From Thermoplasmata archaeon (GTDB lineage: Archaea; Thermoplasmatota; E2; DHVEG-1): DNA of 64,000 nucleotides. The notes beneath the pieces were generated by a model. It worked only from the letters and a program-made list of their open reading frames with translations. It was not told the origin of the DNA and made no database searches. The translations under genes and the position numbers were made by a program. Shown here piece after piece: positions 3,022 to 49,531 of the stretch. Numbering within the stretch: position 1 is the stretch's first letter; each line of letters starts with the position of its first letter. The stretch is from assembly GCA_014894395.1 (NCBI GenBank), contig JADBLO010000072.1:130351-194350 (forward strand), given 5' to 3'.

Positions 3022-3714
3022 TTAAATGCCTCTCACTGCACAGCGTTTGAAAAATGGTTGTATAGCGGTTAACGTCTCTTCGAGGTAGTTTTTTGGATAC
3101 GGAATAGCATGTTCAAGTGTTGATGAAATCAAAGGAGAAAGGGGTTTGAACTGTTGAAGATAATACAGGTCTGCTCCTTTCAACCATTTTGCAATCTCAA
3201 CGATATCCTCTTTTTTCAACAGATCTGGAACGAACGTGGTCTTAAACTCATACGCAGGTGCCTTATTCTTGATAAGATCGATTGATGCTTCAATCTTCGA
3301 CGTATCGACATCGACACCAGCAAGCTCACGGTATCTCCTCTTCGGTGCCTTCACGTCCATCGCGACGTAATCAACAAGCTGTTGTCCCAGCAATTCACCA
3401 AGTTTTTCTGGAAACGCACCGTTCGTATCAACCTTTACTAAAAATCTCTGTTTTTTTATTTTTTCAATGAAATCAACGATATCTTCCTGTAACAGTGGCT
3501 CTCCACCAGAGATAACCACCCCTTCAAGTTGTCCTTTTCGTTTAGAAAGAAAAGAGAGGATTTCATCCTCAGGGAATAACTCTGCGGTCCCCAGCGCAAG
3601 ATTCTTGTTGTAACAGAACGGGCAGCGGAAATTACATCCGCTAGCCCAGACTATCGCACTAATCCGATCTGGATAGTCAAGCAACGATGTTTTCTGAAAG
3701 CCACCTATTTTCAT
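3022..3714 (-). CDS. nrdG: Anaerobic ribonucleotide reductase activating protein (radical SAM)
   Basis: 230 aa. CNFRCPFC radical-SAM CxxxCxxC motif near the N-terminus. Overlaps the nrdD stop by 4 nt. Confidence 0.8.
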   Translation of the reverse strand: MKIGGFQKTSLLDYPDRISAIVWASGCNFRCPFCYNKNLALGTAELFPEDEILSFLSKRKGQLEGVVISGGEPLLQEDIVDFIEKIKKQRFLVKVDTNGAFPEKLGELLGQQLVDYVAMDVKAPKRRYRELAGVDVDTSKIEASIDLIKNKAPAYEFKTTFVPDLLKKEDIVEIAKWLKGADLYYLQQFKPLSPLISSTLEHAIPYPKNYLEETLTAIQPFFKRCAVRGI

Positions 3715-6700
3715 TGTGTAACAAGAACCTTTTCTCTCATATCAAATGTTTTTCGATCACGGAACTCCTGCTGTTTTCCTTTATTCCATTGGTTCACCGG
3801 TCGGATATATCCTACGACCCGAGAGTAGATTTCGCATTCCGTGGTTTTTTGTTCAGCATGACAGGTCGGGCAGTACTGATGTTCACCAGCGATGTACCCA
3901 TGGTCAGGGCAGACGCTAAACGTCGGTGTGATGGTATAGTACGGGAGCGCGTAGTTCTCTGCAACCTTTCGAACTAAGTTCTTGATAGCAGTCGGCGAGG
4001 GTTCTTCCTCACCAAGGAAGATATGCAGTACCGTGCCACCAGTGTATTTTGTCTGTAAGGAATCCTGCAGATCAAGGGCTTCAAAGACATCCGTTGTAAA
4101 TCCAACAGGCAGTTGCGTGGAGTTGGTGTAGTATGGTTCAACGTCCCGCCCACGGTTTTGAGTGTAGATCTCCTGGTTGTATGTTCGAATGTCAGGGTAT
4201 TGTTTCTTATCGATTCGTGCGAGTCGATAGCTCGTCCCTTCTCCCGGTGTTGCCTCCAGGTTAAAGATGTTTTCGGTTTCTTCCTGGAAATCCGCGATAC
4301 GCGTGCGCATGTAATCAAGGACTTTCTCTGCGAATGCCTTACCCTCGGGATCGGCAATACTCTTATTCATGAAGTTCAGCAGAGCATCGTTCATGCCGAT
4401 GAGACCAATGGTAGAGAAATGGTTCTTCCAGTATTCCCCAAAGGTTTTCTTCACATCGGAGAGATAGAACCGTGAGTAGGGATGCAATCCACTATCGGTG
4501 AGATTTTCGATGAGATCTCGTTTGATTTCCAAGCTTTGTTTTGCAAGCACCATAAGTGCATCCAGTCGTTCAAAGAAATCAGTGTCATCTTTTGCAAGAT
4601 ACCCTATCCGCGGCATATTGAGGGTGACGACCCCTATCGATCCGGTTTTGGGATTCGCACCAAAAAGACCGCCACCTCGTTTTCTGAGTTCACGATTATC
4701 AAGTCTCAATCGACAATTGTGTGTTAGAATACCTGTTGTACCGACAGTGAACACAGGTGTTCCATTTTTTACCTCAAAACAATATGCGGCACTGTTGGAT
4801 ATCGGTGCGATGTCCTTTATCTTTACCCAGAGTTTATTGTTCTTCTTAAACCATATATCACCATAATTTTTTCTGTTTAATTGATATATTAATACTGCGT
4901 AATTAGGTTCTTTTCCCAGTCTTCCTTCGCGTGCATCTTCATAGATACTTGTCGTGGTTCCAAGCGTTGCAGTGAGCATGTTTAACGTTTCAACCATCTG
5001 AGGTGAAGAGGTATAAATTCTATTTCTGTTTCCGCCATCGGTGTCATAATGACCAGTAAGTGCCCCTTTTCTAAACTCCTTGCTCACGGTAAAAATCCTT
5101 GCTGTATATTTTTTATCTCTTTTTATTCCCTCGACATAATCTTTACATAAACCAACTGCTGCCTTTGAATGAACCTTGACTGTTGTTAATTTTGTTTTTT
5201 TATCAGCAGTAATTGTACAATGTGCACCGAAATACTGCTCAGCAATTTTAATGAGTTTTGTGATCACCTTTTTTTTGTAGTGGTTTTCTAAAGAAAACAC
5301 CACTGATGTATCACCATCAAAGGATCCATCTCCTGCATACGCTCCAACAAAATAACCTAAGTCTTTTGTCCCTCCAGATCCCTCATATTCCTGTAAAGAG
5401 TACGGTAGATACATTCCGAGTTTGAGGTCTTGACCTTTTACAACGCTTTCTTTTTTTTCGGAAGAATCATTCATTATATAGTTTAAATGATGGGATGACA
5501 TTTTAATTTCATGACCATTTTCTAATTTGATTTTTATCATTTGTTGGTCGTTCCATTTGTTAAATTTTCCTTTGATAAATTTCCCAGCACTATAGATTTC
5601 ATATTCCCCTTGGTTACTGTTACCTTCATAGATATTTCTAATCATTGAATATTCAACGATTCTTCCTCTTGAAGATTTAATTAGAACTTTTTCATCTCCA
5701 GCTAAAGGGCACATGGATCGTGCATCATCCGGCTTCATGTCGCTGTTAATAAAATTACTGAAGTACGGGATCCCGTATTTCGCGGTCATGTCCCAGAGTG
5801 GTGTCAGTCCATCGTTGTTCCAGTTGAAATCTTTTGTGATGTTATAGGTTGGAATGGGAAATGTAAATGGCCTCCCCTTAGAATCACCGTCATGCATGTT
5901 CTCTGCGAATGCACGGTTGATCATCTCCATCTCACCGGTGTATTCACTATAATTATTGTCAGTAAGATTTCCGCCGATAATCGCTGGTTCCTCAGCAAGG
6001 TATCCAGGTATGGTTAAATCCATTGTACAGTTACTGAAAGGCGATTGGAAGCCAACACGTGTTGGTACATTCATATTGAACAAAAATTTTTGCATCTCTT
6101 GCTTTACACTATCGTACTGGAGTTGGTCTTTTGCAATGAATGGTGCTAATAAAGTATCAAAATTCGAAAGAGCCTGTGCTCCTGCGGCTTCACCCTGTAA
6201 AGTGTACAGATAGTTCACGATATGCATAAGTGCAGTGCTGAAATGTTTCGCTGGTTTGCTTTCGATTTTCCCGGAGACGCCTTTGAAACCGAGGAGTAAT
6301 AAATCTTTTAAGTCCCACCCCACGCAATATGGTCCGAGTGTCCCAAGGTCGTGCAGGTGGTAGTCTCCCTTGGTGTGCGCATCTCCTATCTCAGGCGGAT
6401 AAATCTTATTGAGCCAGTAATGAGAAATAATGCTTTCAGTGGCGTACACATTCAATCCTTGCAAAGAGTATGCCATGTTGCTATTCTCATTGACCTTCCA
6501 GTCCAACATGCTGAGGTAGTCATCAACCACATCAATGTCTTTCAGAAGTCCCCCGATTTCTCGCATGTCCTGGTGTTGTTTCCTGTAGAGGATGAATGCT
6601 TTCGCGGTTTTCGCATGACCATCCTCTATGATGACTTTTTCTACGACGTCCTGGACTTGTTCAACTGTAGGGATTTCACTGCGTTTCAACTCTTTTTCTA

Positions 6701-6848
6701 AGATGGTGATAACTTTGTCTGTCAGCTCTGCTGCTTTCTTGTAGTCTTTTCCACCGACTGCTTGTGCTGCTTTCCAGATTGCTTCTGTGATTCTTACTGG
6801 GTTGAAGTCAACAATTTTCCCGTCTCGTTTCTTAATCTTCCGTATCAT
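3711..6848 (-). CDS. nrdD: Anaerobic (class III) ribonucleoside-triphosphate reductase NrdD, with an in-frame intein
   Basis: 1045 aa. N-terminal ATP-cone (VRITEAIWKAA...). C-terminal glycyl radical motif RVVGYIRPV and a Zn-ribbon CPDHG...CPTC. Removing the 332-aa intein leaves ~713 aa, typical for NrdD. Confidence 0.85.
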   Translation of the reverse strand: MIRKIKKRDGKIVDFNPVRITEAIWKAAQAVGGKDYKKAAELTDKVITILEKELKRSEIPTVEQVQDVVEKVIIEDGHAKTAKAFILYRKQHQDMREIGGLLKDIDVVDDYLSMLDWKVNENSNMAYSLQGLNVYATESIISHYWLNKIYPPEIGDAHTKGDYHLHDLGTLGPYCVGWDLKDLLLLGFKGVSGKIESKPAKHFSTALMHIVNYLYTLQGEAAGAQALSNFDTLLAPFIAKDQLQYDSVKQEMQKFLFNMNVPTRVGFQSPFSNCTMDLTIPGYLAEEPAIIGGNLTDNNYSEYTGEMEMINRAFAENMHDGDSKGRPFTFPIPTYNITKDFNWNNDGLTPLWDMTAKYGIPYFSNFINSDMKPDDARSMCPLAGDEKVLIKSSRGRIVEYSMIRNIYEGNSNQGEYEIYSAGKFIKGKFNKWNDQQMIKIKLENGHEIKMSSHHLNYIMNDSSEKKESVVKGQDLKLGMYLPYSLQEYEGSGGTKDLGYFVGAYAGDGSFDGDTSVVFSLENHYKKKVITKLIKIAEQYFGAHCTITADKKTKLTTVKVHSKAAVGLCKDYVEGIKRDKKYTARIFTVSKEFRKGALTGHYDTDGGNRNRIYTSSPQMVETLNMLTATLGTTTSIYEDAREGRLGKEPNYAVLIYQLNRKNYGDIWFKKNNKLWVKIKDIAPISNSAAYCFEVKNGTPVFTVGTTGILTHNCRLRLDNRELRKRGGGLFGANPKTGSIGVVTLNMPRIGYLAKDDTDFFERLDALMVLAKQSLEIKRDLIENLTDSGLHPYSRFYLSDVKKTFGEYWKNHFSTIGLIGMNDALLNFMNKSIADPEGKAFAEKVLDYMRTRIADFQEETENIFNLEATPGEGTSYRLARIDKKQYPDIRTYNQEIYTQNRGRDVEPYYTNSTQLPVGFTTDVFEALDLQDSLQTKYTGGTVLHIFLGEEEPSPTAIKNLVRKVAENYALPYYTITPTFSVCPDHGYIAGEHQYCPTCHAEQKTTECEIYSRVVGYIRPVNQWNKGKQQEFRDRKTFDMREKVLVTQ
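4716..5711 (-). mobile_element. Intein (332 aa) with LAGLIDADG homing-endonuclease domain inside NrdD
   Basis: Starts with Cys (SM|CPLAGDEKV...) and ends ...GILTHN followed by the extein Cys (CRLRL). LAGLIDADG-like blocks LGYFVGAYAGDGSF and LTGHYDTDGG. Boundaries were counted codon by codon. Confidence 0.75.
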
Positions 6849-41308: not shown

Positions 41309-43249
<1,941 letters not shown>

Positions 43250-43260
43250 GGTGATGAAAG

Positions 43261-46200
43261 ATGGCTGAGATTAACAAGAAAAACGATCAACCACGTGATA
43301 TTAACGAGGAAATGAAACGTGCTTTTATTGATTATTCCATGAGTGTGATTATGAGCAGGGCCCTCCCGGACATTCGTGATGGGTTAAAACCGGTTCATCG
43401 AAGAATTTTACATGCAATGAATGAAATGGGAATGGGGTATGAGAAATCGTATAAGAAATCTGCTCGAGTGGTCGGAGAGTGCTTTGTTAAAGATACATTG
43501 GTTCTTACAGAACAAGGACTCATACCGATACAAGATGTAAAAAAGGGAGATGCAGTCTATACTCAAGATGGCTTAGAGAATGTCAAAGAGCTATACATAA
43601 TGCCCAAGCGAGATCTTGTTAAAATTATCTTAGAAAATGGACTAGATGCTATTGTTACAAAATCACAAAAATTTAAGGTACTTACACCAGATTGGAAATT
43701 TATCTGGAAAGAAGTTAGGGAGCTTACCGAAAATGATTACATTGTTATAAAATCCGATTATCCTGACATTAAAAATCAGGTAAGAATTGGAGAAAAATTA
43801 TTAAATAAAAATATCGCGTATCTCCTTGGTCAATTAATTTCCGATGGATGGGTTGAAAAAAGCCAGAGACTCGGCTTTTATTCGAATAGTTTATCTATAA
43901 TAAAAAGAATTGAAGGAATTTTACAAGAAGAATTTGAATATTTTCCTACTGTTGAACAAATAGAATACGAATATGAAACTTCTAATGGGTTAGTTTTGCT
44001 CAATAAGGGTTTCCAAATACGTATCAATAGTAAAACAATAAATCAATATTTAATCCAAGAGTATCATCTCTTGGGTATTAAAGCTGAAAATAAAAAAATA
44101 CCTCAACAAATTTTCCAAAGTCCTAAGGATGTCATTTTTTCATTTATCAGCGGTTTGATTGATGGCGATGGTAGCATTCATAAAGAAAGGAATGTCATTC
44201 ATTATGGTACTGTTTCAAAAGAACTGGCAAATCAACTGATAATACTCCTGCATCATTTCGATATCCATGGAGTTAAATATCTTGAAAAAACTAAAACAGG
44301 TGGTATTGTCTGTGGGAGAAATATTGCACGTACACTTCCATTTTTTTCTTTAGAGTTTAGAGGTGAATGTGCACAAAAATTAGGGATCGAGTTGAATCTC
44401 GCTGAAGAAGAAAAATTACAAAAATTAAAAGAATTATTAAGCTATAAAGTAGGAAAATCAAATTTCGAAATTTTACCATATGGCAGTAAAAAAATCTTTA
44501 GCGAATTAAGCGATTGCCATTTAGGTGGTGGATGGTATCAAGATATAGAGGGAAAAAAAATTAGATCGGGAATAAAATATCCCTCGGGGACAAAGATACG
44601 ATACTCTAAAGAATTGCATGATAAACCCTTACGAATTTCTCAAATAATCGAATGGGGGATACAAAACAAAATAAAAAAAATCGGTTCTGATTTATATGAA
44701 TTTATCGAGAGAATTATCACTGAAAAAATATACTTTTTAAAAGTGAGTGGTATTGAGGAAGGCGGAAGAGAAGAAACTTATGATCTTCAGGTCGAAAACA
44801 AACACGAATTTATTGCCAATGGCATGCTTGCACATAATTGTCTTGGTAAGTATCATCCTCATGGAGATCAAGCTGTATATGATTCATTGGTACGAATGGC
44901 TCAGGATTTCTCGTTGCGTTATCCGTTAATCGCTGGTCAAGGTAATTTTGGTTCTGTCGATGGGGATTCCCAGGCTGCGATGCGATACACAGAAGTAAAA
45001 ATGGCCAAGATCACAAAGCTTATGCTGCAGGATATCGAGAAAGAAACAGTTGAATGGCGTGACAATTTTGATGGCACCTTAAAAGAACCTGAGGTTCTTC
45101 CAGCGATTTTACCGAATCTTCTGGTGAACGGATCGTCTGGTATCGCGGTTGGTATGGCCACGAACATGGCGCCTCATAACATCTGTGAGGTGATCGATGG
45201 TACTATCCGGATGATTGACGCTCCTGAGACATCGACTGCGGAGTTAATGGAGATTATTAAAGGACCTGATTTTCCGACAGGCGGTATTATCTTTGGTCGT
45301 GGTGGTATCCTTTCTGCGTATTCCACGGGACGCGGTTCACTTGTTGTCCGTGCGAAAACCTCCATTGAAGAAGGTGAACAAAAAAATAAAATCATTGTTC
45401 ATGAGCTGCCGTACCAGGTGAATAAATCTGTTCTTCTGCAAACAATCGCTGAGCTTGTCAAAGAGAAGAAAATTGAGGGCATCTCTGATCTTCGCGATGA
45501 AAGTGATCGAAAAGGCATGCGCATTGTCATTGAGTTGAAACGTGACGCTATCGATGATGTTGTATTGAATCAATTGTTTGAACATACTGAGTTACAATCT
45601 TCATTTGGTGTGCTGAATCTTGCGATTGTCAAAGGCGAGCCAAAGGTTCTGATGCTGAAAGAAATTCTTCAGCATTACATTGAATATAGAATAGAAATTA
45701 TTACGCGACGTACCACCTATGATCTGAAGAAAGCGAAAGAAAAAATACACATCCTTGAAGGCCTCATGATTGCGCTGCGGAACATCGATGAAGTCATTAA
45801 GATCATCCGACAGAGCAAAGAAGTTGAGGAAGCCAAAAATCGACTGATAACGCGCTTTAAACTTTCTGAGATTCAAGCAAAAGCCATCCTTGACATGAGG
45901 CTGCAGAAACTCACTGGTATGGAAATCGAGGCTGTTGAAAAAGACTACAAAGAAACCAAACAACTGATTGAACAACTCGAAGCCATCCTTGCAGACAAGC
46001 AAAAGATCCTTGCTGAAATCAAACGAGAGTTGCTCGAGATTAAAGAAAAATTTGGGGACGCGCGACGCACCCAGATCGTGGAAGGAGACGCAGGCATCGA
46101 TATAGAAGACCTCATACCTGTCCAGGAAGTCGTTGTAACCATTACAAAAGACGGTTATATTAAACGTATTCCGACGGAAACCTATCATACACAACATCGT

Positions 46201-47487
46201 GGCGGGAAAGGACTTATTGGTGTACGGCCAAAACAAGAAGATTTCGTAGTTGATTCGTTTATCACCAGCACCCATGATTATCTGATGTTTTTCACGAATC
46301 ACGGGCGGGTTTACTGGATGAAAGGCTATAAGATCCCTGAAGGAGACCGCCATGCAAAAGGAAAAGCCATCATCAACTTACTCCCACGACTTGAAGAAGG
46401 AGAAAAAATTGAAACCGCGGTTCCTATCCATGAGTTTGATGATAAACATTTCTTGATTTTTGCAACAAAACAAGGCACGATTAAAAAGACGGTGTTGTCT
46501 GCGTATGGTAATATCCGGGTGAATGGGATCATTGCCATAAAACTTGAGGAAGGCGATGAGCTCATGGGCGTGGAACTCTCCGATGGAACCAAGACCGTGA
46601 TGATCGCAACCGCTGGTGGTCAGGCCTGCAGGTTTAATGAAAAGGAACTCAGGCCGATGGGACGGGCAACCAGGGGCGTGATTGGTATCCGGCTTAAGAA
46701 CAAGAATGATGCGGTGGTCGCTTTGACCGTGGTGGATATCACAGGTTCGTTGTTTACGATTACAGAAAACGGTTTTGGGAAACGATCCCCGATTGATGAA
46801 TACCGGATGACTCATCGGGGAAGCAAAGGAGTACGAACAATTGTTACCAATGAGCGAAACGGAAACGTGGTGTTCGTTAGTCAGGTCACTGATGAAAACG
46901 AGCTGATTATTACAACTGAGCATGGAATGACCGTACGAATACCGGTACGGGACATCAGGGAACAAGGTCGGAACACGATGGGTGTGCGAATCATGCGTTT
47001 GAACGAGGGCGACAAGGTTGTTTCTGTCACTATTACAAAAATGTTGTCCGAAAACGGAGTGAAATGCGAGGTTGCATCAGCAGAACAGATGCCAATCGGT
47101 ATGATTGCTGAACAGCCCCAGAAAGAAGAACCAGCAGCACCAGTTGAAGAGGCTGAGGAATTACCAAAAGAAGTCAAAGAATCCTTTCCGGTTGTTAAAC
47201 CAGCGGAACCCGAAAAAACAGTAACGAAGCCTGAGGAATCAAGAAAAATCGAGAAGCAAAAGAAAGAAAAAGTAAAGATAGTACCGCTAATAAAAGGCAA
47301 AGGAAAACCACTGAAAATAAAAAAAGCAGCTCCAGCGAAAAAGAAACCAGTTCAAAAGAAGAAGGAAAAACCAGTGAAAAAACTAAAAGCAGTAAAACCA
47401 AAGAAGGTTAAAACAAAACCGGTGAAAAAACTAAAGAAACCTCAGAAGAAAAAAATCTCTGAAAAGAAAAAACCAAAGCGAAAATGA
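43261..47487 (+). CDS. gyrA: DNA gyrase subunit A, containing an intein and a C-terminal K/P-rich tail
   Basis: 1408 aa. GKYHPHGD, AAMRYTE (active-site Tyr). C-terminal beta-pinwheel repeats. 453-aa in-frame insertion. Last ~125 aa are Lys/Pro/Ala-rich. Confidence 0.9.
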   Translation: MAEINKKNDQPRDINEEMKRAFIDYSMSVIMSRALPDIRDGLKPVHRRILHAMNEMGMGYEKSYKKSARVVGECFVKDTLVLTEQGLIPIQDVKKGDAVYTQDGLENVKELYIMPKRDLVKIILENGLDAIVTKSQKFKVLTPDWKFIWKEVRELTENDYIVIKSDYPDIKNQVRIGEKLLNKNIAYLLGQLISDGWVEKSQRLGFYSNSLSIIKRIEGILQEEFEYFPTVEQIEYEYETSNGLVLLNKGFQIRINSKTINQYLIQEYHLLGIKAENKKIPQQIFQSPKDVIFSFISGLIDGDGSIHKERNVIHYGTVSKELANQLIILLHHFDIHGVKYLEKTKTGGIVCGRNIARTLPFFSLEFRGECAQKLGIELNLAEEEKLQKLKELLSYKVGKSNFEILPYGSKKIFSELSDCHLGGGWYQDIEGKKIRSGIKYPSGTKIRYSKELHDKPLRISQIIEWGIQNKIKKIGSDLYEFIERIITEKIYFLKVSGIEEGGREETYDLQVENKHEFIANGMLAHNCLGKYHPHGDQAVYDSLVRMAQDFSLRYPLIAGQGNFGSVDGDSQAAMRYTEVKMAKITKLMLQDIEKETVEWRDNFDGTLKEPEVLPAILPNLLVNGSSGIAVGMATNMAPHNICEVIDGTIRMIDAPETSTAELMEIIKGPDFPTGGIIFGRGGILSAYSTGRGSLVVRAKTSIEEGEQKNKIIVHELPYQVNKSVLLQTIAELVKEKKIEGISDLRDESDRKGMRIVIELKRDAIDDVVLNQLFEHTELQSSFGVLNLAIVKGEPKVLMLKEILQHYIEYRIEIITRRTTYDLKKAKEKIHILEGLMIALRNIDEVIKIIRQSKEVEEAKNRLITRFKLSEIQAKAILDMRLQKLTGMEIEAVEKDYKETKQLIEQLEAILADKQKILAEIKRELLEIKEKFGDARRTQIVEGDAGIDIEDLIPVQEVVVTITKDGYIKRIPTETYHTQHRGGKGLIGVRPKQEDFVVDSFITSTHDYLMFFTNHGRVYWMKGYKIPEGDRHAKGKAIINLLPRLEEGEKIETAVPIHEFDDKHFLIFATKQGTIKKTVLSAYGNIRVNGIIAIKLEEGDELMGVELSDGTKTVMIATAGGQACRFNEKELRPMGRATRGVIGIRLKNKNDAVVALTVVDITGSLFTITENGFGKRSPIDEYRMTHRGSKGVRTIVTNERNGNVVFVSQVTDENELIITTEHGMTVRIPVRDIREQGRNTMGVRIMRLNEGDKVVSVTITKMLSENGVKCEVASAEQMPIGMIAEQPQKEEPAAPVEEAEELPKEVKESFPVVKPAEPEKTVTKPEESRKIEKQKKEKVKIVPLIKGKGKPLKIKKAAPAKKKPVQKKKEKPVKKLKAVKPKKVKTKPVKKLKKPQKKKISEKKKPKRK
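43480..44838 (+). mobile_element. Intein (453 aa) with LAGLIDADG homing endonuclease inside GyrA
   Basis: ARVVGE|CFVKDTLVL ... FIANGMLAHN|CLGKYHPHGD. Starts with Cys, ends His-Asn, +1 Cys. LAGLIDADG blocks YLLGQLISDGW and FISGLIDGDGS. Extein junction aligns with E. coli ARVVGDVIGKYHPHGD. Confidence 0.8.
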
Positions 47488-47491
47488 TACA

Positions 47492-49531
47492 TTAGGCTGA
47501 TGGAACAGGTTGTTTTTCTGTTTCCTTTTTCTTTTTCTTCGGACATTCAGAGTTAATACAGAGTTCCCATGTCGGTCGTCCTTTCATTTTCACTTTAACA
47601 ATGGGAGTGTTACAGGCGTCACACAGTTTCGTCGTCATCGTCAGGCCGCCTTGTTGAGGTAGTGAATACGTGTTCGTACACTCCGGGTACCCGGTGCAGC
47701 CGACAAACCGTTTCGCTTTCTTAGACACCCGGACCACTAGTGGTTTACCGCATTTCGGACATGTTCCAATCGTATTTTGCTCTCTGACAGCGTTGGTGAT
47801 ATTTGTTTTAATCTTCTCTTTCTCAGGCTCAAGTTCCTGCATTACTTTCGTGAGCATCTCCCGTGATTCCTTTACGGTTGCGTCCAGTGTCTTTTTTCCT
47901 TCTGCGATTTCATTCATGTCTGATTCTAGCTCAGCGGTCATTTTTGGTTTTACCACATCACAGTTTATCAACGCATCAACAACCGCGATCGCAGTTGACG
48001 TCGGAATAGGAGTCGCTCCGGTGACATACTTTCGACTGTATAATTTACTGATAATCTCATGACGAGTAGATTTCGTCCCTAGTGAAAGCTGCTCCATCTT
48101 CCCGATCAATGCTCCTTGGGTGTACCGCTGTGGTGGTTTTGTCGTGTCTTGCTTGACAAAGATCTGGACGATGTCAAGTTTCTCCCCCTCAATCAGTTCC
48201 GGTAGTGTTTTCTTTTTGTCTTTGATGTAGGGATAGAGATTTTTCCAGTGTGGTTCCACAAGCCGGTACCCGCTGGTGATAAATTTCTCCCCGGAGATAT
48301 CGAACCATACATCGGTTGTCTCTGAGATTGCGTCTTTTGCTAGTGTCGCAAAAAACCTCCGGCAGATAAGCTCATAGATTGCTGCTTGGTCAGCGCTGAG
48401 TTTTTTAGACGGCGCATCAACAGGGTGAATCGGGGGGTGATCGGTTGTTTGTTGTTTCCCTCGTGTTGGGTGGCTCCTTCCGTTCGTTTGTACTTCTTGG
48501 ACTTCTTTAGAAAACTGAGCAGCTGAGAGTTTCTGTAAAATACCGCTAATGTTCAATGACGGGGGATAGACAGTGTTGTCTGTTCGTGGGTACGACGTCA
48601 ACCCCGTCATATAGAGTTCTTCTGCGATGCTCATTGCCTTTGCCGCGGAAAAACCAAGGTACGAGGCTGCTTGTATAAACGTAGTGGTGTTGAATGGAGT
48701 TGGTGGAAGCTCGTTGTTCACGATTTTCTTTACTTCCTTTACCAATGCTTCTTTGCTTTCCTTGATTTTCGTATAGATCTCTTGAGCGAGGTGTTCTTCT
48801 CGGAATATGCCGTGTTCATGATTGGTATCCAAGGGTTTGTCTTTTTTGAGTCGAGCGATAATCTGCCAATATGGTTTTGGTACAAAGTTTTTGATCTCTT
48901 TTTCTCGTTCGACAAGTAAAGCAAGGGTTGGTGATTGTACCCGTCCGATTGAAAGGAAATCTCGCCCAAGTCGACGAGACGTCAAGGAAATAAATCGCGT
49001 GAGTACCGCCCCCCATACCAAATCAATGAATTGTCGTGCTTCACCAGCACTGGAAAGGTTATAGTCCACCTCGGTGAGGTTGTCAAATGCGGTGTTGATC
49101 TCAAAAGGGGTAATAGCGCTGTATCTGGCTCGTTTTATTTGTGTAATGTTTTGGTTGTAGCTTTTCAGAAGGTTGACAACTTCGACACCGATGAGTTCAC
49201 CTTCTCGGTCAAAATCAGTCGCAACAATGAGGGAGGGGGTGTTTTCAACTAGGGTTTTTAACGCTAAGGCGATCCCTTTTTCACTAACGTTTTTTAAGGG
49301 CTCTACGTTAATCAGTTCGTGAGGAGCGATCTTGTTCCATTGGTTAAAATCACTGGGGTAATCCAGGTTGATGATGTGCCCTTTTAATCCGATGACGCTC
49401 CATGGTTCATTGTCTTTTGTGAAATCGTACACCGGTATTTTTCCGAGATACGTGCTTTTTGTTTTTCCCCCGGAAAGAATGTACGCGATTCGTCTCGCCG
49501 CAATGTTTTTTTCACAAATGATGAGCTTCAT
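47492..49531 (-). CDS. topA: DNA topoisomerase I (type IA) with C-terminal Zn-ribbons
   Basis: 679 aa. Toprim N-terminus MKLIICEKNIAARRIA. Active-site region GLTSYPRTDN. Two C-terminal CxxC...CxxC zinc ribbons. Confidence 0.85.
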   Translation of the reverse strand: MKLIICEKNIAARRIAYILSGGKTKSTYLGKIPVYDFTKDNEPWSVIGLKGHIINLDYPSDFNQWNKIAPHELINVEPLKNVSEKGIALALKTLVENTPSLIVATDFDREGELIGVEVVNLLKSYNQNITQIKRARYSAITPFEINTAFDNLTEVDYNLSSAGEARQFIDLVWGAVLTRFISLTSRRLGRDFLSIGRVQSPTLALLVEREKEIKNFVPKPYWQIIARLKKDKPLDTNHEHGIFREEHLAQEIYTKIKESKEALVKEVKKIVNNELPPTPFNTTTFIQAASYLGFSAAKAMSIAEELYMTGLTSYPRTDNTVYPPSLNISGILQKLSAAQFSKEVQEVQTNGRSHPTRGKQQTTDHPPIHPVDAPSKKLSADQAAIYELICRRFFATLAKDAISETTDVWFDISGEKFITSGYRLVEPHWKNLYPYIKDKKKTLPELIEGEKLDIVQIFVKQDTTKPPQRYTQGALIGKMEQLSLGTKSTRHEIISKLYSRKYVTGATPIPTSTAIAVVDALINCDVVKPKMTAELESDMNEIAEGKKTLDATVKESREMLTKVMQELEPEKEKIKTNITNAVREQNTIGTCPKCGKPLVVRVSKKAKRFVGCTGYPECTNTYSLPQQGGLTMTTKLCDACNTPIVKVKMKGRPTWELCINSECPKKKKKETEKQPVPSA

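Follow-up and report, generated by a model that had tools for sequence, protein, structure and literature searches.

An intein of 453 residues interrupts the DNA gyrase subunit A gene (gyrA) of a Thermoplasmata archaeon (GenBank assembly GCA_014894395.1, contig JADBLO010000072.1). We analyzed positions 130,351 to 194,350 of the forward strand of this contig, a stretch of 64,000 nucleotides (herein the window) whose first letter is position 1 of all coordinates given below. The insert is a genuine intein, with a Hint splicing domain and a nested two-motif LAGLIDADG endonuclease, and it lies at the position equivalent to D72|V73 of Escherichia coli GyrA (vertical bars mark splice junctions). Its block B carries a glutamine where inteins typically have a histidine. 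We read the element as a bona fide full-length intein, probably maintained as a horizontally moving homing element, and place the probability of this reading, the functional part of which is deduced from comparative data, at about 0.85. The kind of element is already known and, apart from block B, the intein is ordinary; the replacement of His by Gln in a catalytic motif is new.

A Full-Length Intein at D72|V73 of GyrA

The gyrA open reading frame (ORF; 43261..47487, + strand) encodes a precursor of 1408 residues, or 955 once spliced, and lies directly downstream of its operon partner gyrB (41336..43249, +; 637 residues, identified by Pfam, without an intein). It scores 1139 bits against the NCBIfam model TIGR01063 gyrA (cut-off 877) and matches Pfam DNA_topoisoIV and DNA_gyraseA_C; the only gyrA next to gyrB within the window is this intein-bearing copy. 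Relatives have a GyrA of ∼816 to 852 residues, and the excess here is a 453-codon block. The N-extein (residues 1 through 73; 43261..43479, +) can be aligned with E. coli GyrA through D72 and ends ...KSARVVGE, with Glu as residue −1. The intein itself (precursor residues 74 through 526; 43480..44838, +) runs from Cys1 to His452-Asn453, and the C-extein (44839..47484, +) starts with CLGKYHPHGD, contains the rest of the quinolone resistance-determining region (QRDR), and includes the C-terminal beta-pinwheel. The insert is in frame, with flanks that read ...KSARVVGE|CFVKDTLV...FIANGMLAHN|CLGKYHPHGD; the length, coordinates, and junctions proposed in an earlier note on this stretch are therefore exact. 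An open frame of 453 codons has a chance probability of 1.5e-18, given the insert's own base composition. Its GC content is 31.6%, against 43.3% for the exteins.

Aligning the K-12 gyrA product (NC_000913.3) to the spliced protein places the insertion within the QRDR (A67 through Q106), ten residues before S83 and fifty before the active-site Y122. The mycobacterial GyrA intein site corresponds to Y122|T123 in the same numbering. In the C-extein both GQGNFG|S and AAMRY|TE, which holds the active-site Tyr, are intact, and SQAAMRYTEVK is uninterrupted; the earlier view that the site is not the mycobacterial one, and that the latter is vacant here, thus holds. When the first 489 residues of the spliced protein were used as query, the matches placed the host in the Thermoplasmatota. 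The four closest (P0030-P0033; 816 to 821 residues) are Thermoplasmatota proteins that are 94 to 96% identical over the 489 extein residues and lack the insert. Their empty site reads ARVVGE|VLGKYHPHGD, and they exclude the possibility that the segment is ordinary host sequence.

Within the insert, Pfam detects Intein_splicing (58.6 bits, cut-off 35.8), Hint_2 at the N terminus, and LAGLIDADG_3 in two stretches (57.7 bits, cut-off 22.5), and the NCBIfam model TIGR01443 intein_Cterm scores over its cut-off. The NCBIfam model for GyrA with an intein (NF038098 GyrA_w_intein) reaches 930.6 against a cut-off of 1850, which leaves this intein outside that model. The best sequence matches in the PDB are PI-PkoII (1e-12), the TliVMA and PhoVMA inteins, PI-PfuI, and gp41-1. 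AlphaFold2, supplied with an alignment of 15 sequences, gave a confident model, with a mean predicted local distance difference test score (pLDDT) of 91.2 and a predicted template modeling score (pTM) of 0.90; the best Foldseek match of the model is the TliVMA intein (E = 5e-23; template modeling score, 0.65 to 0.67), followed by PI-PfuI, PI-SceI, and PI-PkoII, and then by free-standing LAGLIDADG enzymes and mini-inteins. Domain profiles, PDB sequence matches, and the modeled fold all bear out the original identification as a LAGLIDADG intein.

All four Hint blocks align. Block A (CFVKDTLVLTEQG; 43480..43518, +) begins with Cys1 and Phe2; block B (GLDAIVTKSQKFKVL; 43639..43683, +) contains T60-K-S-Q63, encoded at 43657-43668; block F (EETYDLQVENKHEFIAN; 44770..44820, +) holds D435 and H442; and block G (GMLAHN), with the Cys+1 nucleophile of the C-extein, spans 44821..44841 (+) and is the part recognized by TIGR01443. 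The two LAGLIDADG motifs, YLLGQLISDG (43819..43848, +) and FISGLIDGDGS (44143..44175, +), align to those of PI-PkoII and TliVMA and form two helices, each closing in an acidic residue (D122 and D230). Between the endonuclease core and block F lies a conserved region of ∼85 residues (…HLGGGWY.D..G.KIR.GIKY..G.KIRYSKEL…; 44470..44724, +) with many invariant columns in the 15-sequence intein alignment; the PDB sequence matches stop short of it. It is a putative DNA-recognition module.

A first set of 69 inteins from the same GyrA site, drawn from Archaea and Bacteria and with identities to the window intein as low as about 25 to 31%, defines the conserved positions. Cys1, Phe2, Thr60, Gln63, H442, H452, and Asn453 are invariant (69/69), D435 is present in 68 of 69, and Cys+1 stands at every junction displayed. 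The position of D122 is Asp or Glu in 65 of 69, and that of D230 is Asp in 66 of 69, with two of the exceptions being gaps; that both residues are present agrees with the earlier impression of intact endonuclease blocks. The block F Asp/His and the penultimate His of block G are those of class 1 inteins, and the presence of Cys1 together with Asp435 at the block F position sets the intein apart from class 3, whose members lack a Cys1/Ser1 nucleophile and have a Trp-Cys-Thr triplet with a Cys in block F. The splice residues had been described as canonical throughout, which is correct for Cys1, the terminal His-Asn, and Cys+1 but not for block B, where the histidine is Gln63.

Glutamine Replaces the Block B Histidine

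HMMER alignments to gp41-1 and PI-PfuI place Gln63 at the canonical His of the T-x-x-H motif and Thr60 on its Thr/Ser; H99 of PI-PfuI aligns to Gln63. Residues 1 through 100 of the intein contain no His at all. When the family was aligned using MAFFT with 20 other inteins (from the two other GyrA sites, an NrdD gene in the window, RecA-like recombinases, ribonucleotide reductases, and others), His occupied the position in 20/20 of the latter and Gln in every member of the same-site family. Among 250 N-domains of related inteins aligned to a profile, 179 have His and 37 have Gln in this column; six of the 37 Gln cases are in hosts other than GyrA, so the substitution extends beyond GyrA. These six lie in multi-intein hosts, namely P0173 (from residue 80), P0216 (from about residue 82), P0177 (residue 652), P0232 (residue 850), P0221 (residue 999), and P0285.

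Two divergent inteins at the same site, P0168 (residues 92 through 529) and P0172 (residues 79 through 510), keep the block B His (ST[YL]NH) and end Ser-Ser-Asn, with Ser for the penultimate His; this is the reverse of the combination in the window family. They can serve as natural controls, and the family as a whole (about 70 full sequences examined) offers a natural set for the study of a first splicing step that proceeds without the block B His.

The His at B:10 has been called the "most conserved" intein residue (PMC4031507), although a 2020 paper describes the block B residue as "substituted in several inteins" (PMC7664689). Three reviews (PMC4031507, PMC7765530, and PMC6333167) name the orthologs of the Tko CDC21-1 intein (host MCM/CDC21) as the sole functional group without it, the other His-less case in their lists being an Arthrobacter pseudogene; in Tko CDC21-1, Lys58, which lies outside the conserved motifs, compensates for the absent His. 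Since that intein splices, the block B His is not strictly defining of inteins. The window family resembles Tko CDC21-1 in being a natural His-less group but differs in host and site, and in having an invariant Gln. Lys66 is a candidate compensator here: it is particular to the same-site family in the MAFFT alignment, in which other inteins are hydrophobic at that position. K77 and D86 were ruled out as family-specific compensators, because the pattern W-K/R...L..GD is common to unrelated inteins that have the His.

Because of its invariance, the selection acting on it, and its apparent mobility (see below), we judge the Gln form of block B to be probably functional, and it merits biochemical testing. 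We also lean, if only slightly, toward the view that these inteins form a widespread and apparently undescribed clade of His-less class 1 inteins (Gln at B:10), with a compensation unlike that of Tko CDC21-1, that has crossed repeatedly between Bacteria and Archaea via gyrA homing.

Distribution of the Same-Site Family

A protein search with the intein alone gave 28 strong matches, all 28 in GyrA and all at the same junction wherever the sequence reaches one; a 29th, weak match is an intein in a DNA methylase. GTDB was also scanned, with one genome per species; of the 80 loci returned, 56 carry an intein at D72|V73. The site, about whose cataloging the earlier note could not decide, is thus filled in at least 56 species, about 24 archaeal and 32 bacterial, and is widespread among uncultivated lineages. 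The archaeal hosts are Nanoarchaeota/Woesearchaeota, Thermoplasmatota including Methanomassiliicoccales, Methanophagales, and Asgard archaea; the bacterial hosts are Omnitrophota, several lineages of the candidate phyla radiation (CPR), Planctomycetota, WOR-3, Chloroflexota, Armatimonadota, Desulfurobacteriaceae, Rhodothermaceae, a deltaproteobacterium, and Bacteroidota. In a library of 1.84 billion representative proteins, 28 of the 143 new best matches examined (150 listed) have the intein at the D72|V73 site of GyrA, so that about 28 clusters at 50% identity belong to the family among those 143 best-scoring representatives. Whenever genomes of uncultivated archaea, CPR bacteria, and DPANN archaea are annotated, or their gyrases placed in phylogenies, the insert should be recognized and stripped.

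Three loci have mini-inteins at the site (L054, L063, and L065, from Microscillaceae, Cytophagales, and Capsulimonadaceae), which are 159 to 174 residues long and lack the endonuclease. In a Methanomassiliicoccaceae locus (L050, CAWBKY010000002.1) the intein seems frameshifted near its 3′ end, the frame exiting ahead of block G; either the copy is decaying or the assembly is in error here. Viral contigs, when scanned, yielded only distant inteins (no more than 29% identical), none of them in a locus with the GyrA junction, and viruses were rejected on that ground as carriers of the same-site intein.

Our literature search, which did not extend to catalog tables, found no paper that describes the D72|V73 site of GyrA, no experiment on it, and nothing specific on a Gln in block B. 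The site is probably already present in bulk catalogs. Villain et al. (2022) came across 23 archaeal GyrA sequences with inteins, which they discarded and did not describe. Novikova et al. (2016) list GyrA inteins under bacterial phyla only and give GyrB, TopA, Top6B, and reverse gyrase as the archaeal topoisomerase hosts. Kelley et al. (2016) use the label "GyrA-a" for Mycobacterium xenopi, which implies other lettered GyrA sites.

Selection, Mobility, and Alternative Readings

The closest intein-bearing relative (L082, 80% amino acid identity) served as reference for ratios of nonsynonymous to synonymous substitution (dN/dS). The ratio is 0.093 over the full length of the intein, 0.089 for its endonuclease, 0.066 and 0.095 for the N- and C-terminal Hint parts, 0.118 for the ∼85-residue region, and 0.016 for the exteins, all rough values at a dS near saturation (about 1.2). 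Intein and host similarities are discordant. A relative with an extein 90% identical to that of the window (L026) has an intein only 46.7% identical, and a nanoarchaeon (L001) has values of 57% and 60.9%, respectively; identity to the window intein is 47 to 52% in bacterial Omnitrophota and 47 to 51% in other Thermoplasmatota. Discordance of this kind, combined with purifying selection, argues for a maintained element that moves horizontally. The suggestion in the earlier note that the intein may still be an active homing element fits these data, with both catalytic Asp residues intact and the endonuclease under constraint.

None of the 120 closest GyrA relatives listed has intein domains in its Pfam annotation, and the +1 residue, readable in 119, is Thr in 61, Val in 49, and Cys in 9; the intein-bearing allele therefore brings its own Cys+1 nucleophile. 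The nine with Cys (P0071, P0074, P0081, P0085, P0086, P0092, P0093, P0095, and P0127) are Thermoplasmatota reading VGD|CLG[KR]YHPHGD, and their Cys may be a footprint of past occupation and loss. Identity to an intein-less relative (L081) is only 0.68 and 0.77 in the stretches beside the junction, against mostly 0.83 to 0.97 elsewhere (one more distant stretch has 0.70); the same junction-adjacent stretches are 0.93 and 0.87 identical to the intein-bearing L082. This pattern is only a hint of co-conversion of the flanks.

Several points weigh against a functional, moving element. Splicing and DNA cleavage by the gyrA intein are deduced from its sequence and a predicted fold, many inteins no longer splice once the block B His is lost (PMC6333167, PMC7765530), and any single sequence with Gln at block B could in principle be splicing-dead. 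Beyond the roughness of the dN/dS values, dS is nearly equal in the intein (1.20) and the exteins (1.30) between the window and L082. This fits vertical co-inheritance within a sub-lineage and gives no pointer to recent invasion; loss or non-invasion would then account for the still closer relatives that lack the intein. The co-conversion signal consists of two comparisons. Low GC was rejected as a sign of recent transfer, since the deficit is family-wide: intein GC is below extein GC in 37 of 39 loci, and the average gap is 6.7 points.

The equal dS values are also what would be predicted if the intein were splicing-competent but immobile, its endonuclease inactive or repurposed and the element persisting by vertical descent because imprecise loss destroys an essential gene. 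The mini-inteins show that the endonuclease can decay at this site, and the viral contigs yielded no same-site copies that could be vectors. We nevertheless consider immobility unlikely: dN/dS of the endonuclease is as low as that of the Hint parts, its two catalytic Asp residues are conserved, and the incongruence of intein and host, with the nearest hosts lacking the intein, points to continuing gain and loss.

An intein that acts as a conditional regulator, with the environment tuning GyrA splicing through a Cys1-Cys+1 disulfide or a weaker activation by Gln, is decidedly unlikely in our view. The circumstantial case for it is that Cys1 and Cys+1 are both invariant and that a non-canonical block B could slow the first step; an insert in the DNA-binding QRDR should also leave the unspliced precursor inactive, and regulatory roles of inteins are a topic of reviews. 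The patchy distribution and the intein-less closest relatives speak against a role that the host requires.

That the element is a degenerate, splicing-dead relic, with gyrA a pseudogene or an interrupted protein, would accord with the block of the first step by block B His mutations in many inteins and with the naturally His-less Arthrobacter DnaB intein, which is a pseudogene (both PMC4031507, PMC7765530), but is very improbable given a Gln63 invariant across two domains of life alongside equally invariant C1, T60, H442, H452, N453, and Cys+1, a long open frame under strong purifying selection, exteins under still stronger constraint in a gyrA that has no second copy next to gyrB in the window, and the functional His-less precedent of Tko CDC21-1.

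Proposed Mechanism

The steps of splicing can be proposed from class 1 intein chemistry. Translation would yield the 1408-residue precursor, in which Cys1 (precursor Cys74) would attack the carbonyl of Glu(−1) (Glu73) in an N-S acyl shift. As the block B His, the usual activator of the N-terminal scissile bond, is absent, this shift would need to rely on hydrogen bonding by the Gln, on compensators such as Lys66, Asp435/His442, or the Glu at −1, or on both. The N-extein would then pass to Cys+1 (precursor Cys527) by trans-thioesterification; Asn453 (precursor Asn526) would cyclize with help from His452 and block F, freeing the intein; and an S-N shift would give the 955-residue GyrA, with Cys at the equivalent of E. 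coli V73, a position that is Val or Thr in intein-free relatives.

The free 453-residue protein is predicted to cut intein-less gyrA across ...GTAGTTGGAGAA|GTGCTCGGTAAG..., and recombinational repair would copy in the intein along with short tracts on its flanks, the Cys+1 codon among them. In L081 the empty site reads ...AAATCTGCTAGAGTAGTTGGAGAA|GTGCTCGGTAAGTACCACCCGCAT.... The predicted target lies in the universally conserved KSARVVGE|VLGKYHPHGD and is new; the intein might yield a new rare-cutting endonuclease and might serve as a new splicing tool.

Relation to Other Inteins

With the mycobacterial GyrA inteins (Mxe/Mle GyrA, "GyrA-a"; the subject of NF038098) the window intein shares its host protein, its class 1 chemistry with Cys1 and a terminal His-Asn, and an insertion in the catalytic N-terminal domain. 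The insertion points differ, as mapped above, and there is no meaningful sequence similarity; only the C-terminal block of the mycobacterial structure 1am2 matches, with E = 0.06. The Y122|T123 inteins compared have the canonical T/S-x-x-H where the window intein has Gln.

Closest in both fold (E = 5e-23 to 3e-14) and sequence are TliVMA and PhoVMA (7qss, 7qst), PI-PfuI (1dq3), and PI-PkoII (2cw7), which likewise combine Hint, a two-motif LAGLIDADG endonuclease, and added DNA-binding parts. Their hosts are different (V-ATPase A, ribonucleotide reductase, and DNA polymerase), identity is 13 to 20%, and PI-PfuI keeps the canonical block B His.

Inteins at two other GyrA sites, G110|S111 (GQGNFG|CFTGDT) and Y122|T123, share the host domain and can co-occur with the D72|V73 intein in one gene (e.g., L001, L030, L043, L046, and L049), but they are non-allelic, unrelated in sequence, and have a canonical T-x-x-H. 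The part of GyrA from E. coli residue 72 to residue 123 thus has three independent insertion sites and is a hot spot for inteins. G110|S111 is occupied in L001, L023, L030, L043, L049, and L065, and Y122|T123 in L046, L048, L049, L051, and L052; P0002, P0007, P0011, and P0021 are further cases. Several genes hold two inteins, and all three sites are filled in a single gyrA of the Armatimonadota locus L049 (JAYUUO010000001.1).

Other Features of the Window

The C terminus of GyrA (about 47030..47484, +) extends ∼145 to 150 residues beyond the last conserved motif, EGDKVVSV, and its final 143 residues include 46 Lys, 19 Glu, and 18 Pro. This tail, which could be a basic DNA-binding extension, is absent from the closest GyrA relatives (816 to 821 residues), which terminate shortly past EGD[KR]VVSV. 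Directly downstream and tail-to-tail with gyrA is a gene for topoisomerase I (TopA, 679 residues; 47492..49531, −). The intein-less L081 has the same gyrB-gyrA arrangement and keeps an upstream Vps62-like gene, with unrelated PEMT and UbiA genes in the place of TopA. An Rfam scan of the window found three tRNAs only, and nothing relevant to the intein.

A second intein of the window lies in the anaerobic ribonucleotide reductase NrdD (3711..6848, −; 1045 residues; Pfam NRDD, 2e-189). It is ∼320 residues long, with the junctions DDARSM|CPLAGDEK...GILTHN|CRLRLD; it contains two LAGLIDADG-like motifs, and its block B has the usual His (MSSHH).

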